From Candidatus Magasanikiibacteriota bacterium (GTDB lineage Bacteria > Patescibacteriota > Patescibacteriia > Magasanikbacterales > UBA922), in the NCBI GenBank assembly GCA_018652595.1, contig JABIBU010000016.1, forward strand, positions 26,911-90,910: a stretch of 64,000 bases of DNA, given 5' to 3'. Each line of letters starts with the position of its first letter. Position 1 is the first letter of the stretch. Of the stretch, positions 5,036 to 61,764 are shown in pieces. Both the position numbers and the translations under genes were made by a program. The notes below the pieces were generated by a model, which had not been told where the DNA came from, searched no databases, and saw only the letters and a program-made list of their open reading frames with translations.

Positions 5036-5141
5036 ACACAGCAAGACAAAATAAACTTAAAAATTTACTTTGTCCTACTGTGAACAAAAATATAGTAACA
5101 AAAAAAGACTAAAAAGTCAATACCACCGCTGTGAATTATAA

Positions 5142-5843
5142 TTATTTTAATTTATGCTTTTCTAAAACAACCTTTTTTGCATCTTCGTACTCTCTCACTC
5201 GCTTTGAAATTCCAGGTAAACACTTGAAAGGAACCCCATAAGCAATTCTTGGCAACCAACCACTCATTGTACCGCCACCTAGTATTGTAAATAAATATTC
5301 ATCTACCCAAACGCCAGCCTTACCTTTCTCAGCCATACCCAACCAAAGATCCCAATCTTGAAACCTCTTCAAGCTCTCATCCCATTTCATCACATCTTTT
5401 CTACGGATTAAACTGGTGCTGTGAATATAATTATTTTTTTCCAATTCACTCTCATCAAATTTTCTAGCAGGAATTTTTTTTGTTATATATTTTATGATAG
5501 ATGTCTCATGATTGCAATATGCATAACTCGCTTCACTATTCTCTTGCAACTCACCACACATCTTTTCCAACATTTCAGACTCTCCAATCACATCCGCATC
5601 CCAAAATATCACATACTCACCTTTTGCTTCTTCCAACCCCCTGTTCCTGGCACTCGGCGCTCCCTTATTTTCTTGTCTGATTAATTTAACAGAATCATCT
5701 ACCTCAACTTTCTCATCACTACCATCATCTACTACTATGATTTCAATGTTTTTATAAATTTGTCTTTTTATTGAATCTAAAACCTTAGGCAACAAATGCA
5801 CTCGGTTATATATTGGAATAATTACACTGATTAATTCTTTCAT
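5142..5843 (-). CDS. glycosyltransferase family 2
   Basis: ISVIIPIYN...VVDDGSDE...WDADV GT-A signature. The ORF extends to 5936 but a start at M32 (MKELISVIIP) fits family N-termini. Confidence 0.7.
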   Translation of the reverse strand: MKELISVIIPIYNRVHLLPKVLDSIKRQIYKNIEIIVVDDGSDEKVEVDDSVKLIRQENKGAPSARNRGLEEAKGEYVIFWDADVIGESEMLEKMCGELQENSEASYAYCNHETSIIKYITKKIPARKFDESELEKNNYIHSTSLIRRKDVMKWDESLKRFQDWDLWLGMAEKGKAGVWVDEYLFTILGGGTMSGWLPRIAYGVPFKCLPGISKRVREYEDAKKVVLEKHKLK

Positions 5844-6000
5844 AGAAAATGTGTCATTGCGAGGAGTGAGTATACACAACGCGGCAATCTCATACATTAA
5901 TAGCGATACTAATGTATCAAAAACTGAGATTGCCACGCAAAAAATTTTCTTTCAGAAATTTACTGCTCGCAATGACAGTGTTTTTATAATTTGGATCACC

Positions 6001-7140
6001 CTACATCCACTTACCAATCACTTTCATCTGACTATCCCACTTAAAATTTGCCCGAACCCTGATCCTTGCATTCTCAGATAATCTCTTGGCATATTCATCA
6101 TTATCAAACATTTCTGCAATTGATTTTATTACACTCTTGTCGCCCTTATATATATCGACTAGAACACCAGTCTGTGTGTGAAGCACTGCTTCTTCTACAC
6201 CACCACTCTTACCTGCCACAACAGGCAATCCAGCTGCCGCTGCCTCCAGATAGACCAAACCTAACCCCTCTTCTCTACCTTCATCTGGATGAGTAAGCAA
6301 TACAAACAAATCTGCCAAATGATAAAACTTGTTCAATTCTTCGTGTGGTACCTCACCAATAAACCTAACTACACTCTGCAAAGAATTCTTTTGTATTTCT
6401 TTTAACAAAAAATCTTTCTTCGGACCATCACCAACCACAAACCAAACCAAATTTGGAACTTCTTTCAATATCTCTGGCAACATTCTAATAAGATGAGTGT
6501 AACCCTTACCCTCATCCAGCCTGGCAACAGTTAGCATTACTTTTTTCCCTTCCAAGGCATACTGCGCCTTTAGACTATTATTTTCTTCCTCGCTCATTTC
6601 ATCATAAAAAATCTGCTCTGGACAAGGATACAGCACACTTGCCTTACTCTCATACTCGGGCAATACTTTTAATAGTCTGTGTTTCAAATTTTTGCTGTTA
6701 AATACAATCTGCTCAGAATCTTCCAAAACTTTTTTTAACATTCCTCGTTTCCACCTAGATCTGGTAGCATACTCTATATCTGTACCATGTGAAAAAACCA
6801 GATAAGGAATTTTTTTGAACTTTTTTATAAGCCTGGCTACATGCCCAACTGGCAATACGTGATGCAAATAAATTATCTCGATTTTTTCTTTTTTTATAAT
6901 TCGTAACACCTGAAAAAATAACTTGATCCATCTAGGCCAAATAAAGACCGGGAAAAGCATGTTTTTTCTAATTGTCTTAAATTTTTCCCCCTTATCAAAT
7001 TCTTTTGCATTCTTGTAGCCCGGTGCCAATACGACAACATCAGCTGGATCTAGCTCGCCAGCAAATTGACGAACATAACTAGCTATTCCACCAATCTTTG
7101 GTGGATACTCAAATGTAATAATTAATTTTTTCATAAACAA
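6001..7140 (-). CDS. glycosyltransferase family 4 (GT-B)
   Basis: C-terminal EGLGLVYLEAAAAGLPVVAGKSGG motif of GT1/GT4 enzymes. Confidence 0.8.
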   Translation of the reverse strand: MFMKKLIITFEYPPKIGGIASYVRQFAGELDPADVVVLAPGYKNAKEFDKGEKFKTIRKNMLFPVFIWPRWIKLFFQVLRIIKKEKIEIIYLHHVLPVGHVARLIKKFKKIPYLVFSHGTDIEYATRSRWKRGMLKKVLEDSEQIVFNSKNLKHRLLKVLPEYESKASVLYPCPEQIFYDEMSEEENNSLKAQYALEGKKVMLTVARLDEGKGYTHLIRMLPEILKEVPNLVWFVVGDGPKKDFLLKEIQKNSLQSVVRFIGEVPHEELNKFYHLADLFVLLTHPDEGREEGLGLVYLEAAAAGLPVVAGKSGGVEEAVLHTQTGVLVDIYKGDKSVIKSIAEMFDNDEYAKRLSENARIRVRANFKWDSQMKVIGKWM

Positions 7141-28360: not shown

Positions 28361-28981
28361 TTATTTGCACTTACTTTCTACTTCAGACATTATTTCAACT
28401 AAAACTGAATTAGTCACTTGGTTTCTTTTTTTAATATTATCAATAAATTCTCTTGCTCGTACATCTGTTCCGTATTGCTCGTATTCGTACGCCTTCAACA
28501 CTGCTTGTAATTTATCCATTTCTTTTAGAAGTTTGCCTTCTGGGGTGCTTTGCTCTTCAAATTCTAACCAAAGTTTCATAACATCCTCTCCTTCATTACC
28601 AAGCTTAGAACAAATCGACTCCATGGCTTTTAACTCATCTGATTTCTTTTGTGCTACTAATTGCTTCTCTTTTTCTCCGCTATAAATTACTGTAACCCTA
28701 TCACCCACATCTGGGTTACCCTCTGCCCAATCATGGATCTGAATAATCCTTATCATTCTATTTCGATCAAACTCTTTGTCTGGATCAATCTCGTCAATTA
28801 CAGATTCAAACAATGCAATCATGGAATCAGTGTGTTCTCCTACTGTTTCTGCTTTATCTTTTCCAATTCCATGATTGAGCCATCCAGTTCGAGGTACTTT
28901 ATACAAATCACCAACAGATTTTCTTGCCTGCTCAAATTCCGATGTATTAAATAGCTCAATAATTTGCTCTCTTTCTCTCAT
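28361..28981 (-). CDS. HD-domain protein, YfbR-like 5'-deoxynucleotidase family
   Basis: RTGW…GEH…HD metal-binding pattern (VPRTGWLNH…VGEHTDSM…IQIHDWAEG). Confidence 0.55.
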   Translation of the reverse strand: MREREQIIELFNTSEFEQARKSVGDLYKVPRTGWLNHGIGKDKAETVGEHTDSMIALFESVIDEIDPDKEFDRNRMIRIIQIHDWAEGNPDVGDRVTVIYSGEKEKQLVAQKKSDELKAMESICSKLGNEGEDVMKLWLEFEEQSTPEGKLLKEMDKLQAVLKAYEYEQYGTDVRAREFIDNIKKRNQVTNSVLVEIMSEVESKCK

Positions 28982-30004: not shown

Positions 30005-30856
30005 CTATTTTTTAAACAAATCATTCACCCAAGCCAAACCAACACCAAAAGGTCGCAGTATCGCAATCCAAATCCATTTATACATCGGTTCCCATTTTTT
30101 GAAATAGGTCAGCATAGATCGAGTGAATTGTTTTTGTTTCCACAATGTTTTTCTTTTTTTGAAACTCTGTCCGACATAGTCTATCGCAGATATCACTGGT
30201 GTATACATGACTTTATAATTCAAACGTTTTGCTTCACGACATATGTCGACATCCTCATACCAAATAAAATATCTTGGATCAAATGCCCATCCAAGCTTGT
30301 CGACAAATTCACGACGCATGAGCATGAATGATCCACGCACACTATCCACCTCTTGTTCTTTTTCAATATCTAAATCTTTCATGTGATATGAATTCAAGGT
30401 ATTTGGAAATATATGTGGAATCTTCAAAATAAGTGCGAGCTGCTCCCAGAGTTTTGGGAATCGACGAGGTGAGGCATCCCAATTGAATTTTCCATATTGA
30501 TCCAAAAGTTTTGGACATACTATTCCCACATCCTTATTTTTTTTCATCCAATCTAAAATACCATCTAAACTTCCTTCTTCAACCATCATATCTCCATTGA
30601 GAAATAACAAAAATTCACCTTGTGCAATTTTCAATCCTTGATTATTTCCCGCACCAAATCCTATGTTTTCTTTATTTTCTATCAATTTCACATGTGGAAA
30701 TTGATTCTTCACAATCTCAATGGTCTGATCACTCGATCCACTATCTACGATGATCTCCTCACACGTCACATCTTTGCATCCAGCAAAAACAGACGCGATC
30801 TGACGCGCAATTTCTTTTTCATTATTCCAAGTGACAGTGATTATACTTAGATCCAT
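30005..30856 (-). CDS. glycosyltransferase family 2
   Basis: LSIITVTWNNEKEI…IVDSGSSD GT-A signature. Start taken at M21 of the ORF (MDLSIITV); the longer ORF would overlap the GxxExxY gene. Confidence 0.7.
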   Translation of the reverse strand: MDLSIITVTWNNEKEIARQIASVFAGCKDVTCEEIIVDSGSSDQTIEIVKNQFPHVKLIENKENIGFGAGNNQGLKIAQGEFLLFLNGDMMVEEGSLDGILDWMKKNKDVGIVCPKLLDQYGKFNWDASPRRFPKLWEQLALILKIPHIFPNTLNSYHMKDLDIEKEQEVDSVRGSFMLMRREFVDKLGWAFDPRYFIWYEDVDICREAKRLNYKVMYTPVISAIDYVGQSFKKRKTLWKQKQFTRSMLTYFKKWEPMYKWIWIAILRPFGVGLAWVNDLFKK

Positions 30857-31309
30857 ACACTGATTACGTTGATTAATTTGGATTACACTGATTTTTATAA
30901 GTCTTGTAATTTCCAAAACGTTTTACTTCTAGACTGGGATTACCAAAATTTATAAGCAAACCAACTTCCAGACCACTAGCTTTTAAATAAGAAACTGTCT
31001 GGGTTTTAAATATTTTCGATACTTCCCCACTTACAGCTTTCAATTCAACAACAACCTTACTGTTTACCAACAAATCAACCCTAAAAACTCCTATTATTTT
31101 ATTGTTATATACTACATCAAACTTTTTTTCTGTTTCGACAGCATATTCTTGTTCAGTTAAATCATCTAACAATGCTGTATGATAAATTTGTTCCTTAAAA
31201 CCTGGGCCCAACCCCCTATGAATCTTCATTGCAATACCAATTATTTCACGTGTTAGTTTGCTCCCTTTTTACATATTCAGTGTAATCTATTATAATCTGT
31301 CAATCAGTG
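30857..31309 (-). mobile_element. inverted-repeat-flanked mini-cassette carrying the GxxExxY gene
   Basis: cactgatt-N16-attacactg (30857-30889) versus cagtgtaat-N14-caatcagtg (31278-31309). Terminal 8-9 nt are perfect reverse complements and the interior is AT-rich and similar. The right IR overlaps the stop of the PGI/PMI gene; the left IR encodes the last 7 codons. Confidence 0.5.
30873..31229 (-). CDS. GxxExxY family protein (PD-(D/E)xK-like), N-terminally short
   Basis: LGPGFKEQIYHTAL (GxxExxY), VDLLVN…VELKAV, LLINFG motifs. The conserved N-terminal segment (…TREIIGIA) is encoded in frame upstream of the ATG after a TAA, with no canonical start. Confidence 0.7.
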   Translation of the reverse strand: MKIHRGLGPGFKEQIYHTALLDDLTEQEYAVETEKKFDVVYNNKIIGVFRVDLLVNSKVVVELKAVSGEVSKIFKTQTVSYLKASGLEVGLLINFGNPSLEVKRFGNYKTYKNQCNPN

Positions 31310-32368
31310 TTTCATTTCTTTCTTAAAAAAATCTACATAAGGAATATCTGTTGGATCAATATTTTTTAGCAGTGCGCTGTAATAGCTAATATAACTTCCC
31401 AAAACTAAAGCTTCACAAGCCTGAAGTAATGCATCTTTTTCTTTCATATTATAAATTTCGTTTTGAATTCCATTTTTGTTTAGAACTTTTTTGGTCACAT
31501 CATAGCGCTTGCCGACCCTCTTGTGATACAAATCTGATTTTAACATTATAAATAACAAACTGCGCTTATTGCTAGCTGGATTCATCATCCCTTCCATTAG
31601 ATGATGATTGAGCTCTGGAATTGCAAAATATGCTGCCATACGCTTGGCATTCTCATTCATTTGGTTTGCCGCTATATGAGCATTGCCGAGTAAATGCTCT
31701 GACGCAACATACAGAATACTCTTGCTAATTGTTTTTCTGGCTAATTGCTTTGCAATATTTTCCTTTTCTGGAGTAAGTACACCAAAAAGACCATCATAGT
31801 ACGCAAGTGTCTTAATTACCTCTTTTACTTTTTTCTGAGAAAGTTTTAGTAATCCAACTCTAGAAAATAAAATCAACTGACCCATAATTGAATAGCCCAA
31901 ACCCATACGAGGTGAACCACAAGGATTATTCTCTGTGGTAAAAATTAAGGCAGGCAAATTATTTCTCTTAGCAAAAGCCTTTAACTTTCCACCTGCAGAA
32001 ATAACAACAATCTTGGCTTTTTTTATTTTTGCTTTTTTGACAGCTTCGACAACCTCTTCTGTTCCACCGGAATAGCTAGAAGCAATTACCAGAGTCTTAC
32101 TATTAGCAAATTTTGGAACATCATATCCATTTATAATGTCAACTGGCAACTTTAATTCACTAGAAAATAAATTTCTAATCAAATCTGCGCCTATAGCAGA
32201 CCCACCCATTCCCAAAACTACTACGTTTTGAATATTTTTATAATTTGTAGGAATTTTCAAATCCTGAGCAGTATTATAAATTTGCTCTACTTGTTTTGAA
32301 AGTAATTGCAAACTTCCAAGCATATTTTGTGAATCTAGTTTTTTTATTTTTGTTATATTGTCTAGCAT
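31304..32368 (-). CDS. bifunctional phosphoglucose/phosphomannose isomerase (SIS domain)
   Basis: SIS-domain VLGMGGSAIGADL and a second SIS half. Archaeal-type PGI/PMI architecture. Confidence 0.7.
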   Translation of the reverse strand: MLDNITKIKKLDSQNMLGSLQLLSKQVEQIYNTAQDLKIPTNYKNIQNVVVLGMGGSAIGADLIRNLFSSELKLPVDIINGYDVPKFANSKTLVIASSYSGGTEEVVEAVKKAKIKKAKIVVISAGGKLKAFAKRNNLPALIFTTENNPCGSPRMGLGYSIMGQLILFSRVGLLKLSQKKVKEVIKTLAYYDGLFGVLTPEKENIAKQLARKTISKSILYVASEHLLGNAHIAANQMNENAKRMAAYFAIPELNHHLMEGMMNPASNKRSLLFIMLKSDLYHKRVGKRYDVTKKVLNKNGIQNEIYNMKEKDALLQACEALVLGSYISYYSALLKNIDPTDIPYVDFFKKEMKH

Positions 32369-35580: not shown

Positions 35581-35628
35581 AAAATTTTATTTAATATTTT
35601 TTTATAAACCACGACAGGTGGTGCTGGG
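35551..35628 (-). promoter_or_regulatory. 15-bp perfect inverted repeat bracketing the rmlB ribosome-binding site and start codon
   Basis: cccagcaccacctgt (35551-35565, codons 6-10 of rmlB) and acaggtggtgctggg (35614-35628, 5' UTR) are perfect reverse complements separated by 48 nt that contain the SD and ATG (35580). Confidence 0.45.
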
Positions 35629-35670
35629 TGAATCCTGCCCCGCCGGTAACTAGTAAATGCATAATAGTTT

Positions 35671-36108
35671 ATCCTGAGCGTAGCGAAGGATCTCTCCTAC
35701 CTCAGATTTTATTTAATAATTAAAATAATGGTCTAATTTTTGACATTGTAACCACATTGTCGTATAAATCATTCCAATCTTTATTGTTCTTTTCAATAAG
35801 TTCTATTTTTCTTTTTCTAAGCCACCCCTTCAATTCTCTTTCTCTATTCATTGCTTCATGTTTAAAATGAAAATGTTCCCAATATATCAATCTATTAACT
35901 TTGTATTTCTTTGTGAAAGCATTATCAAATGTGCCTTTTTTATGTTGGTTAATTCTTTTTACTAGACAATTTGTAAAACCAATATAAATTACTTTGCTTA
36001 TGCTAGCAGTCACGTATACATAATAATTTTTCCTCCTAGGTATCATATTAAAATGTAAGTATTTATTCTTCGAAAGATCCTTCCTCGGTCTTGAGACCTC
36101 CTCAGGAT
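35671..36108 (-). mobile_element. inverted-repeat-flanked mini-cassette carrying the GIY-YIG nuclease gene
   Basis: atcctgagcgtagcgaaggatct (35671-35693) versus agatccttc-N17-ctcaggat (36075-36108). Termini agatccttc / ctcaggat are perfect reverse complements. The right IR overlaps the NUDIX stop codon. Confidence 0.5.
35720..36046 (-). CDS. GIY-YIG nuclease family protein (small, homing-endonuclease-like)
   Basis: YYVYV…IYIGFT…R…H…G…E GIY-YIG catalytic motifs in a protein of about 100 aa. Start taken at the internal M (MIPRRKNYYVY); the longer ORF overlaps the NUDIX gene. Confidence 0.7.
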   Translation of the reverse strand: MIPRRKNYYVYVTASISKVIYIGFTNCLVKRINQHKKGTFDNAFTKKYKVNRLIYWEHFHFKHEAMNRERELKGWLRKRKIELIEKNNKDWNDLYDNVVTMSKIRPLF

Positions 36109-46974: not shown

Positions 46975-47005
46975 AACAAAAACCCGCATTACAGCGGGTT
47001 TTATA
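46975..47005. terminator. terminator (recR / rplU convergent)
   Basis: acccgc-attaca-gcgggt flanked by A/T runs; the T-run is stronger on the minus strand. Confidence 0.6.
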
Positions 47006-47042
47006 ATCTGTATAATCTTTCGAAATCCGTGTAATCAGTGTT

Positions 47043-60423: not shown

Positions 60424-61344
60424 ATGTCTATCAAAGTCTTGAAACAAAAAGAACTAACCTGGGTCAACATCGACAAACTCGATAATGAGGCTTTGGCTTA
60501 TCTAAAAGAAAATTATAACTTCCACCACTTGGACTACGAAGATTTGCAAGGTGAGGTACAGACCCCAAAAATAGACGTATATAAAAATTATCTATTTCTG
60601 GTCTTTCATTTTCCTCATTGGAATTCTGTTTCACAAAAAGTAAAATCTCATGAAGTAGACGTATTCATGGGAGATGGATATCTAATCACAATCCAACACA
60701 CCAAGAGCAAAGAAATAAAAAACTTTTTTTATCGCTGTACAAAAAACAAAAAAGTAAAAGCTGACTGGATGCAAACAGGCCCAGGCCATCTATTATACAG
60801 ACTCACAGAGGCACTATTTAGAAATAGCCAGCCAATATTAGACACTATTGGAAAACAAATATCTGAGCTAGAAAATGAGATTTACTCTGGAGAACAAGAT
60901 ACTAAGACTGTAAAAGAACTTGCTATTCATCGTAGAAATATTTTGCAATTTAGAAGAATACTAGACCCACAACGATATCTAATTAGTAATCTTACTCATA
61001 TTCGCAAATCCTTTTTGGATGAAAGCTTGGCAATTTATTTTGATAATGTTAGCGATTATTTGAGCAAAATCTGGTCTATTACAGACACTTACCGAGATAC
61101 AATAGATGGATTACATGTAACAGTAGAATCTCTTATAAATCACAGGACAAACAAAGTAATTAGTGCTCTAACAGTTATTTCTGTCTCACTACTACCTCTT
61201 ACTTTGCTTTCTGGTATTTATGGCATGAACATCGCTGGTCTACCACATGCCCAAAATCCTTTTTGGGTCTGGATGATGTTTATAGGGATGCTATCTTTTA
61301 TACTAATAGTGATAGCTGTGATGAAGAAGAAGAAGTGGTTGTAA
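60424..61344 (+). CDS. corA: magnesium/cobalt transporter CorA
   Basis: C-terminal two TMs with the YGMNIAG (GMN) signature. Confidence 0.85.
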   Translation: MSIKVLKQKELTWVNIDKLDNEALAYLKENYNFHHLDYEDLQGEVQTPKIDVYKNYLFLVFHFPHWNSVSQKVKSHEVDVFMGDGYLITIQHTKSKEIKNFFYRCTKNKKVKADWMQTGPGHLLYRLTEALFRNSQPILDTIGKQISELENEIYSGEQDTKTVKELAIHRRNILQFRRILDPQRYLISNLTHIRKSFLDESLAIYFDNVSDYLSKIWSITDTYRDTIDGLHVTVESLINHRTNKVISALTVISVSLLPLTLLSGIYGMNIAGLPHAQNPFWVWMMFIGMLSFILIVIAVMKKKKWL

Positions 61345-61346
61345 TA

Positions 61347-61757
61347 AGTAGAAAGGTAAAAGTATAAAGTAGAAAGATTATGTCTTTAGAAAAATTTGAA
61401 GATATAATTGCCTGGCAAAAAGCTGGCAAACTTACTTTAAGTGTCTATAAAACCTTTAAATGTTGTAAGGACTATAATTTTAAAGATCAAATACAAAGAG
61501 CTACAGTATCAATAATGAATAATATTGCCGAAGGGTTTGAAAGGAAATCAAATAAAGAGTTTATAAGATTTTTGTACATTGCAAAAGGATCTTGCGGAGA
61601 AGTTCGATCAATGCTCTATTTGGCAATTAAATTAAATTATATAAAAGAAGAAGATTTTCAAGAGTTTTATAATAAATCAGTAGAAATTTCCAAGATACTT
61701 TCCGGATTAATTAAATCACTCAAATAACTTTCTACTTTTACCTTTATACTTTCTACT
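61347..61757 (+). mobile_element. inverted-repeat-flanked mini-cassette carrying the four-helix-bundle gene
   Basis: IR-L agtagaaaggtaaaagtataaagtagaaag (61347-61376) and IR-R ctttctacttttacctttatactttctact (61728-61757); terminal 9-mers perfect and duplicated. The cassette fills exactly the corA-murJ intergenic gap. Confidence 0.55.
61380..61727 (+). CDS. four-helix-bundle protein (23S rRNA intervening-sequence protein family, TIGR02436-like)
   Basis: AWQKA…VY…RATVSIMNNIAEGFERKS…EFIRFLYIAKGSCGE matches the family consensus. Flanked by 30-nt inverted repeats. Confidence 0.75.
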   Translation: MSLEKFEDIIAWQKAGKLTLSVYKTFKCCKDYNFKDQIQRATVSIMNNIAEGFERKSNKEFIRFLYIAKGSCGEVRSMLYLAIKLNYIKEEDFQEFYNKSVEISKILSGLIKSLK

Positions 61758-61764
61758 GATTTTC

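Follow-up and report, generated by a model that had tools for sequence, protein, structure and literature searches.

A cassette-like insertion was analysed in a stretch of 64,000 nucleotides (nt) of DNA from Candidatus Magasanikiibacteriota bacterium (contig JABIBU010000016.1), hereafter referred to as the window, in which a gene of the GxxExxY nuclease family lies between two genes of sugar metabolism, one for a bifunctional phosphoglucose isomerase/phosphomannose isomerase (PGI/PMI, or PGI for short) and one for a family-2 glycosyltransferase (GT2). Comparison with related sequences shows that the gene and its two flanking repeat arms form a unit of ~454 nt, inserted at the junction between the stop codon of the PGI/PMI gene and the start codon of the GT2 gene. 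In our interpretation, which we hold to be probable, this unit is a degenerating copy of a small, selfish and promoterless GxxExxY nuclease cassette that is bracketed by inverted phased arrays.

The genes concerned are all on the minus strand, in the order PGI/PMI (31304-32368; SIS type, identified by Pfam and NCBIfam matches), an open reading frame (ORF) of 118 codons (30873-31229), and GT2 (30005-30856, identified by Pfam), whose ATG is at 30856-30854; the G+C content of the window is 36%. The whole inserted segment (30857-31310, minus strand), as delimited by the comparison of filled and empty junctions, begins with a 5' arm (IR-L, 31275-31310, minus strand), to which homologous arms are found at loci L170, L172, L174, L006, L007, L090 and L181. 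The stop codon TGA of the PGI/PMI gene (31306-31304) lies within the first unit of this arm, and the last two codons of that gene together with the stop (AAA CAC TGA, i.e. K-H-stop) come from the cassette. The arm is followed by an ATG (31274-31272) and an ochre codon at codon 2 (TAA, 31271-31269), by 13 in-frame codons (KGSKLTREIIGIA, 31230-31268), which encode the conserved start of helix 1 and have no start codon of their own, and by the 118 codons that remain open from Met16 and match GxxExxY/PDDEXK_3 in profiles and alignments. The 3' arm (IR-R, 30857-30893, read on the plus strand), located by motif and array searches, encodes the final codons of the ORF, KNQCNPN, and its stop, and its end at 30857 directly adjoins the ATG of GT2, with 0 nt between them. 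An earlier note on this DNA, made from the sequence alone, had described terminal inverted repeats that bracket a GxxExxY ORF, the right one overlapping the TGA of the PGI/PMI gene and the left one encoding KNQCNPN; all of these statements check out. The termini are thus real, but they are not the simple repeats of 8-9 nt that the note took them for, each arm being made of four phased GATT units.

That the cassette with its inverted-repeat ends was inserted, as had been proposed, is borne out by empty junctions at two different sites. In locus L086, whose PGI is 91% identical to that of the window, the junction reads ...GAAATGACCAAGTAA-tt-ATGGATCTA... (TAA-tt-ATG) and continues into GT2, while the window reads ...GAAATGA, then the cassette (AACACTGATT ... 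AATCAGTGT) and then ATGGATCTA...; the cassette thereby displaces a 10-nt junction, which is CCAAGTAATT in L086 and AAAAATAATT in L176, and the empty-junction DNA contains ATGACCAAGTAATTATGGATC. A cassette at this junction, again with the K-H-TGA end, is also present in L170/L171 (PGI 67% identical), where it is intact, and in L172/L173 (PGI 69% identical), where it is frameshifted; when the three PGI-site copies were compared for monophyly, the window copy of GxxExxY was 74% identical to all the others. By PGI, the relative nearest to L170 is L176 (83% identical), where the junction is empty (AAA AAA TAA-tt-ATG); the nearest to L172 is L178, which lacks the cassette and in which an FdtA gene comes directly after PGI. 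In the PGI tree every cassette-bearing allele is paired with a cassette-less sister, and the C-terminus of PGI is (T/A/S)K-stop in cassette-less relatives versus K-H-stop in cassette-bearing alleles. Up to the arm, the 3' end of the window PGI gene does not differ from that of L086; GT2 shows much the same distance to every relative, the protein (GT2a) being fast-evolving with 63-67% amino acid identity to each of them. The second site is that of the nearest GxxExxY homologue, P0002 (73% identical), which is located between a CTP-transferase-like gene and a Ham1/NUDIX gene and has arms of 33 nt with two positions different between them; in L179 and L180, which are syntenic with this locus, the site is empty, with spacers of 25 and 36 nt. 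A further homologue, P0008, stands behind a cupin-type PMI gene, where the arm gives the last five codons and the stop. At the L172 locus (5502-5530), the start of GT2 is now inside the 3' arm (ATG AAT AAT CAG TAT AAT CAG TGT CTG GAT...), the old ATG being CTG; arm sequence has here become coding sequence of the downstream GT2. The empty spacer of L180 (1965-2000) is itself a phased array of short repeats, namely four tandem 7-nt units, TCACATA TCACATA ACACGTA TCACGTA.

Each arm is 36-37 nt long and consists of four phased units of 8-10 nt with a GATT end, except that unit four of the 5' arm ends in GAAT. Read on the minus strand from 31310 to 31275, the 5' arm is ACACTGATT/GACAGATT/ATAATAGATT/ACACTGAAT, and the 3' arm, read on the plus strand from 30857 to 30893, is ACACTGATT/ACGTTGATT/AATTTGGATT/ACACTGATT. 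The arms are direct arrays of 9-nt units and not palindromes. The nonamer ACACTGATT is found at 30857-30865(+), 30885-30893(+) and 31302-31310(-), and a second shared repeat, GATTACACTGA, at 30881-30891(+) and 31277-31287(-). There are six copies of ACACTGATT in the window, three of them at the cassette ends, versus 0.75 expected, and none of 100 shuffles reached this number; arrays of at least three phased GATT units number four in the 64 kb versus 0.4 expected. Two of the four arrays are the cassette arms, one is within a coding sequence, and the remaining one, recovered by the array search, is a solo arm of the same repeat family at 47005-47041 on the minus strand (ACACTGATT/ACACGGATT/TCGAAAGATT/ATACAGATT), for which no partner was found within the window. 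This solo arm starts two bases past the stop of rplU and is followed by a terminator-like hairpin, AAACCCGCTGTAATGCGGGTTTTTG. In locus L006 both arms carry ACACAGATT at the place of the window's ACACTGATT.

Besides the close Magasanikbacteria loci, the analysis covered 139 GxxExxY loci from genomes and metagenomes, taken from among the matches listed; these are mostly distant, from Bacteroidota and similar groups, and also include Planctomycetota, Verrucomicrobiota, Chloroflexota, Leptospirales, Dojkabacteria and others. An inverted repeat between the two flanks with a score of at least 14 was found at 52% of the 139 loci and in none of 432 displaced control pairs, and 12% of flank pairs drawn from different loci also reach this score, which indicates that there are repeat types common to different loci. 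Successive GAT trinucleotides in the flanks are spaced by 9 nt in 33% of cases, by 8 nt in 12% and by 10 nt in 7%, with 2-4% in the controls. The profile of the unit is K-G-A-T-T, i.e. (T/G)GATT, plus four variable positions, usually with three to four units per arm, and the outer end of the arm reads TGTCTGAAC in many phyla. Altogether 268 arrays were found in 789 kb of fetched loci, 158 of them beside a GxxExxY gene; among the others are solo arms, tandem sets and cargo-less pairs placed back to back. The GxxExxY gene points the same way as its upstream neighbour at 106 of 112 loci and as its downstream neighbour at 70 of 93, so the gene sits behind host genes and presumably relies on host transcription. 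Termini of the same kind as in the window, which the earlier note had proposed to look for, are hence present at other cassette loci, and the design of a gene plus two arms recurs across many bacterial phyla.

The product of the ORF is assigned to the GxxExxY/PDDEXK_3 family by TIGR04256 (127.8 bits; cut-off 35) and PF13366 (121.1 bits; cut-off 22). Its catalytic set is present, comprising the GxxExxY motif G25-F-K-E28-Q-I-Y31 as well as D67, E77 and K79, and the GxxExxY and D...ExK columns are invariant in alignments of 25 and of 63 sequences. A sequence search gave no match to a solved structure, and a fold search identified the protein as a PD-(D/E)xK core with a Cas4-like fold. This core of 130 amino acids is the only ORF of the cassette, in which no DDE, HUH, serine or tyrosine transposase domain was found. 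Many members of the family, e.g. P0361, P0362 and P0364 in the protein library, have 250-295 amino acids with two tandem GxxExxY domains, and such natural fusions suggest that the functional unit of GxxExxY may be a dimer. The family comprises 33,531 clusters at 50% identity; it is rarely carried on plasmids (8 of 72,556 records), and no match to the PHROG or PADLOC libraries pointed to a phage or defence affiliation. The function of PDDEXK_3 has been given as unknown (PMC3424549). In the literature searched, GxxExxY appears in only a handful of papers, and the arm architecture is described in none that we found.

A first alternative places the function of the arms in RNA, where they would pair within the operon transcript as a long stem round the ORF, to be processed by RNase III or by the encoded nuclease, thereby freeing the cassette mRNA or joining the PGI stop and the GT2 start, in the manner of an intervening sequence (IVS). 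The 23S rRNA IVS of Coxiella, which carries the ORF S23p, has been described as a selfish element in which an rRNA stem encloses an ORF (PMC4990558). Like it, the cassette is a short insert with complementary ends round a small ORF, and the window also holds, at 61380-61727, a member of the IVS ORF family (Pfam 23S_rRNA_IVP), a four-helix-bundle gene in an analogous cassette with complementary flanks of ~30 nt. In addition, the minimum-free-energy and centroid folds both pair the ends of the window cassette (helices of 10, 5 and 11 bp; z = -2.4), cassettes are nearly always co-oriented with the upstream gene, and the arms abut the stop and start codons at all sites examined in the candidate phyla radiation (CPR). 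On the other hand, the cassette differs from the rRNA elements in lying between protein-coding genes and not in rRNA helix 25 or 45, in encoding a nuclease and not a four-helix bundle, and in the way its arms evolve. Across 71 inverted repeats read on the sense strand, G:U-type mismatches do not exceed A:C-type mismatches (56 versus 70), and A:A and T:T mismatches are common; the mismatch spectrum therefore gives no support to the RNA stem that the earlier note had implied. Arm-to-arm mismatch is 1-4% at the GAT core versus 20-27% in the non-complementary spacers between the cores, although this contrast is partly conditioned on GAT having been found in one of the arms. The arms of back-to-back cargo-less pairs likewise agree mainly in their cores, a helix has no need of a phased 9-nt core, solo arms occur, and no Rfam or rRNA match was obtained in the 900 nt around the cassette (30600-31500), where only a sub-threshold chance match to a snoRNA appeared. 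Since the phased core is kept, the spacers are not complementary and G:U is not in excess, the sequence comparison favours arrays for protein recognition over an RNA stem, and we consider the IVS-like explanation unlikely.

A second alternative takes the system to be domesticated. It draws on REPIN/RAYT systems, in which REP-associated tyrosine transposases (RAYTs) lie between inverted REP sequences (Nunvar 2010; Bertels & Rainey 2011). The likeness to the cassette is close, as in both a small nuclease- or transposase-like gene lies between two inverted copies of a short repeat, and in both, intergenic DNA also harbours the repeat on its own, singly or as an inverted doublet, typically close behind stop codons (here the solo arm at 47005-47041 and the arrays of other genomes). 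As has been proposed for RAYTs and REPINs, the phased-GATT arrays would be useful to the host, e.g. for the stability of mRNA 3' ends or the organisation of the nucleoid, GxxExxY would maintain or disperse them, and the copy between PGI and GT2 would have lost its enzyme. The numerous cargo-less pairs, solo arms and tandem sets near GxxExxY genes are in keeping with such a role, as are the solo arm placed just past the rplU stop and ahead of a terminator hairpin, the one in a spacer between two GT2 genes of L086 (GT2b and GT2c), and the fact that so large a family is rare on plasmids and absent from the PHROG and PADLOC libraries. However, the cassette is patchy even among close relatives and has been inactivated repeatedly (in the window and in L172), as expected of a dispensable element, its insertion overwrites host coding sequence, and it is not known to bring a benefit. 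The resemblance to REPIN/RAYT has limits as well, in that the enzyme is a Cas4-like PD-(D/E)xK protein instead of an HUH/Y1 (IS200/IS605-like) transposase, the repeats are phased 9-nt arrays with a GATT core instead of G+C-rich palindromic hairpins, and the copies are patchy and often decayed, while RAYTs are single-copy and vertically kept. Domestication seems to us an improbable account of the arrays.

The degeneration of the window copy is seen at its start, which reads ATG TAA AAA GGG AGC AAA CTA ACA ... GCA ATG. Close homologues begin with M-Y-K-E-S-x-L-T-x-x-I-I-G-I-A-M-K-I-H in the protein alignment, and L170, L172, L006, L007 and L090 read ATG TAT/TAC AAA GAA/GAT, with Tyr at codon 2, where L174 has CTA (Leu). 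When the upstream in-frame codons are added, the Pfam and TIGRFAM profiles match from profile position 2, so that codons for the family N-terminus lie, in frame, between the TAA and the first usable ATG. Judging from the codon comparison, the protein alignment and the five identical assemblies described below, the family start ATG persists at 31274-31272, and one transversion has turned codon 2 into ochre. The earlier note had rightly recognised family residues upstream of an apparently decapitated ORF; it overlooked the in-frame ATG that precedes the TAA, and the residues lost up to Met16 are 15, not about 13. Of its two explanations, a non-ATG start (ATT or ATA) or decay, the latter is the better one, as no unusual start is needed where an ancestral ATG is present and is followed by an ochre at the position of Tyr in the relatives. 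A complete ORF with the family N-terminus, M-Y-K-E-S-x-L-T, is thus not found here, the next start being Met16. There is also a second lesion, at the 3' end, where one nucleotide is missing in an A-run at ~30894-30898, three codons before the usual stop, which shifts the last three codons and turns the common tail KSV-stop into NQCNPN-stop; this tail is disordered in the AlphaFold2 model. The copy of L172, at the same site between PGI and GT2, is frameshifted, i.e. likewise inactivated. The simplest reading is therefore that the nuclease gene of the window is decaying, and the 118-amino-acid 'GxxExxY protein' called in many assemblies would be a pseudogene product or a truncated member of the family.

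Several other accounts of this start region were rejected. A sequencing or assembly error, which the earlier note had allowed for, is unlikely, as 601 nt around the cassette are identical across five assemblies from four or more samples. Neither an alternative genetic code nor read-through of TAA applies, TAA being the commonest stop (19 of 37 genes), with TGA also used as a stop and long ORFs intact under table 11. A new Shine-Dalgarno (SD) site, GGGAG (31265-31261), has no start codon in range that it could serve, and SD sites are hardly used in this genome. Yet the gene might still function, either through a shortened active protein made from Met16 (31229) or through a near-cognate codon past an ATG-TAA mini-ORF. 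In its favour, the 118 codons are open with all catalytic residues there, gene callers annotate the product, and it recurs in 41 assembly blocks. Moreover, SD-like motifs precede only four of the 37 long genes in the window, so the missing SD before Met16 says little; many window genes are only 0-10 nt apart, and with SD use so rare translation seems to be largely SD-independent or coupled, which also bears on the tolerance of insertions at stop/start junctions. Against it, a start at Met16 drops residues 1-15 and with them most of helix 1, which spans residues 5-22 in the AlphaFold2 model of P0002 (pLDDT 93) and of which T8, I11, I12, G13 and A15 are invariant or nearly so in the alignments; the stretch from the TAA to Met16 contains no ATG, GTG or TTG; TAA is the genuine stop used most often here; and the second lesion has to be accounted for. 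Continued function thus appears quite unlikely.

Finally, chance similarity in AT-rich intergenic DNA, for which one could cite the low G+C content of the window, the ease of short A/T-rich matches and the noise-like character of many of the 21 weak inverted-repeat pairs returned by the window search, is refuted by motif and array counts far above those of shuffled sequences, by homologous arms beside homologous genes in other genomes, by the empty sites and by the displaced controls (0 of 432), and its probability is negligible.

Returning to the selfish cassette, we picture its workings as follows. At the DNA level, the arms would be arrays recognised by a protein, most probably a dimer of the nuclease that the cassette itself encodes, and may serve to move or copy the cassette as transposon ends or REPIN repeats do; such nuclease-mediated, non-DDE mobilisation would explain both the missing target duplication and the replaced junction. 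Transcription would come by read-through from the upstream host gene, and homologous recombination between relatives could add or remove the cassette at a given junction. The nuclease is probably no longer active in this genome; if any is still produced, it would start at Met16 and lack the greater part of helix 1, and what remains may be a scar that the operon tolerates.

A number of points weigh against this interpretation, in addition to the conditioning of the core/spacer contrast mentioned above. Binding or cleavage by any GxxExxY protein is not reported in the literature searched, and it could be a host protein, not the nuclease, that recognises the arms. The window holds only one cassette and one solo arm in 64 kb, too few to show recent activity; 48% of the family loci have no clear inverted repeat; and the patchy presence could stem from repeated loss instead of gain. 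No target-site duplication was found at the filled/empty pairs window/L086, L170/L176 and L174/L179-L180, where the junction is replaced instead, 10 nt or the whole spacer of 25-36 nt giving way on insertion, which is unlike DDE transposition. The predicted RNA fold, which pairs the cassette ends, also leaves room for a role at the RNA level.

Among known systems, the logic of the cassette is closest to that of free-standing homing endonuclease genes and of REPIN/RAYT systems; each known class considered has defining features that the cassette lacks. Free-standing homing endonucleases such as Seg and Mob of phage T4 spread by 'intronless homing' (PMC2988022, PMC2790892), and the recognised homing-endonuclease families, six in number, include PD-(D/E)xK (PMC6083498). 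As with these genes, a small nuclease gene that is often degenerate lies between conserved host genes, relies on host transcription, and is present or absent at one and the same junction, that between PGI and GT2 being occupied in the window, L170 and L172 but not in L086 or L176. Homing endonuclease genes, on the other hand, have no need of flanking inverted-repeat arrays; cleavage of the empty site is not known for the cassette nuclease, comparison of the flanks gave no clear signal of a co-conversion tract or recombination breakpoint beside the cassette, and GxxExxY is chromosomal in bacteria and not phage-borne (no PHROG match).

The ends of the cassette may also be compared with those of other mobile elements. 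Tn7 and Mu carry multiple transposase-binding sites at their ends, and Tn7 uses a PD-(D/E)xK protein, TnsA. The cassette shares with these elements, and with insertion sequences and miniature inverted-repeat transposable elements, terminal inverted repeats with several phased units per end that resemble protein-binding sites, as well as ORF-less derivatives, but it has no DDE, HUH, serine or tyrosine transposase and no target-site duplication, is only ~450 nt long, and keeps its gene in a fixed orientation relative to the host operon. It resembles integron cassettes in that a single ORF without a promoter, pointing in the direction of upstream transcription, is enclosed by imperfect inverted repeats in a unit of a few hundred nt; in contrast to them, its boundaries (AACACTGATT... 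and ...AATCAGTGT) have no attC core GTTRRRY, its repeats are on both sides of the ORF and not in a single attC after it, and it is dispersed singly in operons with no integrase or attI context. Lastly, unlike the Cas4 nucleases SSO0001 and Pcal_0546, GxxExxY is only a core of ~125 residues, with no Fe-S cluster module and no CRISPR context.

Two other small genes in cassettes are present in the window, and the earlier note had suggested that these cassettes (35671-36108 and 61347-61757) have a common origin with that of GxxExxY; the suggestion is not supported, as their repeats belong to different families and only the general layout is common. The four-helix-bundle gene (23S_rRNA_IVP/TIGR02436; 61380-61727, plus strand) lies between corA and murJ, with arms of ~30 nt (61343-61376 and 61728-61761) whose layout follows that of the GxxExxY arms: the 9-nt units in first and last place are identical (AGTAGAAAG), and the inner units are swapped between the arms; the core is AGTA, not GATT. 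A GIY-YIG gene (35720-36046, minus strand; flanks 35581-36101) lies between a NUDIX gene and one for a dTDP-glucose dehydratase-like epimerase, and it is an insertion too; the gene is absent from the corresponding sites of L088 and L086, which have spacers of 9 and 47 nt. Its flanks hold repeats of the GGATCTTTCGAAG/GAGATCCTTC type, and the insert carries a duplicated 34-nt copy of an epimerase 5' end (ATGCATTTACTAGTTACCGGCGGGGCAGGATTCA, ~35629-35662), which fits an acquisition mediated by recombination. In a tblastn search of the fetched loci, the four-helix-bundle gene had only a single weak match, and close relatives had a few copies of GIY-YIG.

A hot spot of small repeat elements is found at the junction between PGI and GT2, with at least three unrelated kinds. 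Besides the GxxExxY cassette, L087 carries there (5066-5243) an ORF-less element of 178 nt with GGGATCTTTCGAAG/CCTTCGAAAGATCCC arms, of the repeat family that flanks the GIY-YIG gene of the window, and L088 (5063-5200, equivalent to L089 3330-3467) carries an ORF-less long palindrome of 138 nt, GTCATTGCGAGAAGT...GACGAAGCAATC; the motif GTCATTGCGAGGAGT is also found in the window at ~5850-5885. In L086 the solo phased-GATT arm (6964-7000, minus strand) takes up the whole 43-nt spacer between GT2b and GT2c, and the window, at the matching place, contains an additional HD-domain gene (28361-28981); arms may thus mark points at which gene content differs between relatives.

With regard to the biology of these organisms, the streamlined operons of CPR bacteria tolerate such insertions in that the arms provide the stop codon of the gene before them and reach as far as the start codon of the gene behind. 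With regard to the family, phased repeats that travel with the gene, presence or absence at exact stop/start junctions and cargo-less arrays together give a testable hypothesis for GxxExxY, namely sequence-specific binding or cleavage of KGATT nonamer arrays. We go further only tentatively, to a possibility that we think more likely to fail than to hold: that GxxExxY genes with inverted phased arrays of KGATT nonamers are an undescribed, cross-phylum class of minimal mobile elements, in which a dimer of the Cas4-like PD-(D/E)xK protein would itself be the mobilising enzyme, binding the three to four phased sites of each arm and excising or copying the ~450-nt unit into operon stop/start junctions, with the cargo-less pairs as non-autonomous derivatives. 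If true, such elements would be a nuclease-based counterpart of RAYT/REPIN systems, and mobilisation would give a family of more than 33,000 protein clusters a function for the first time.

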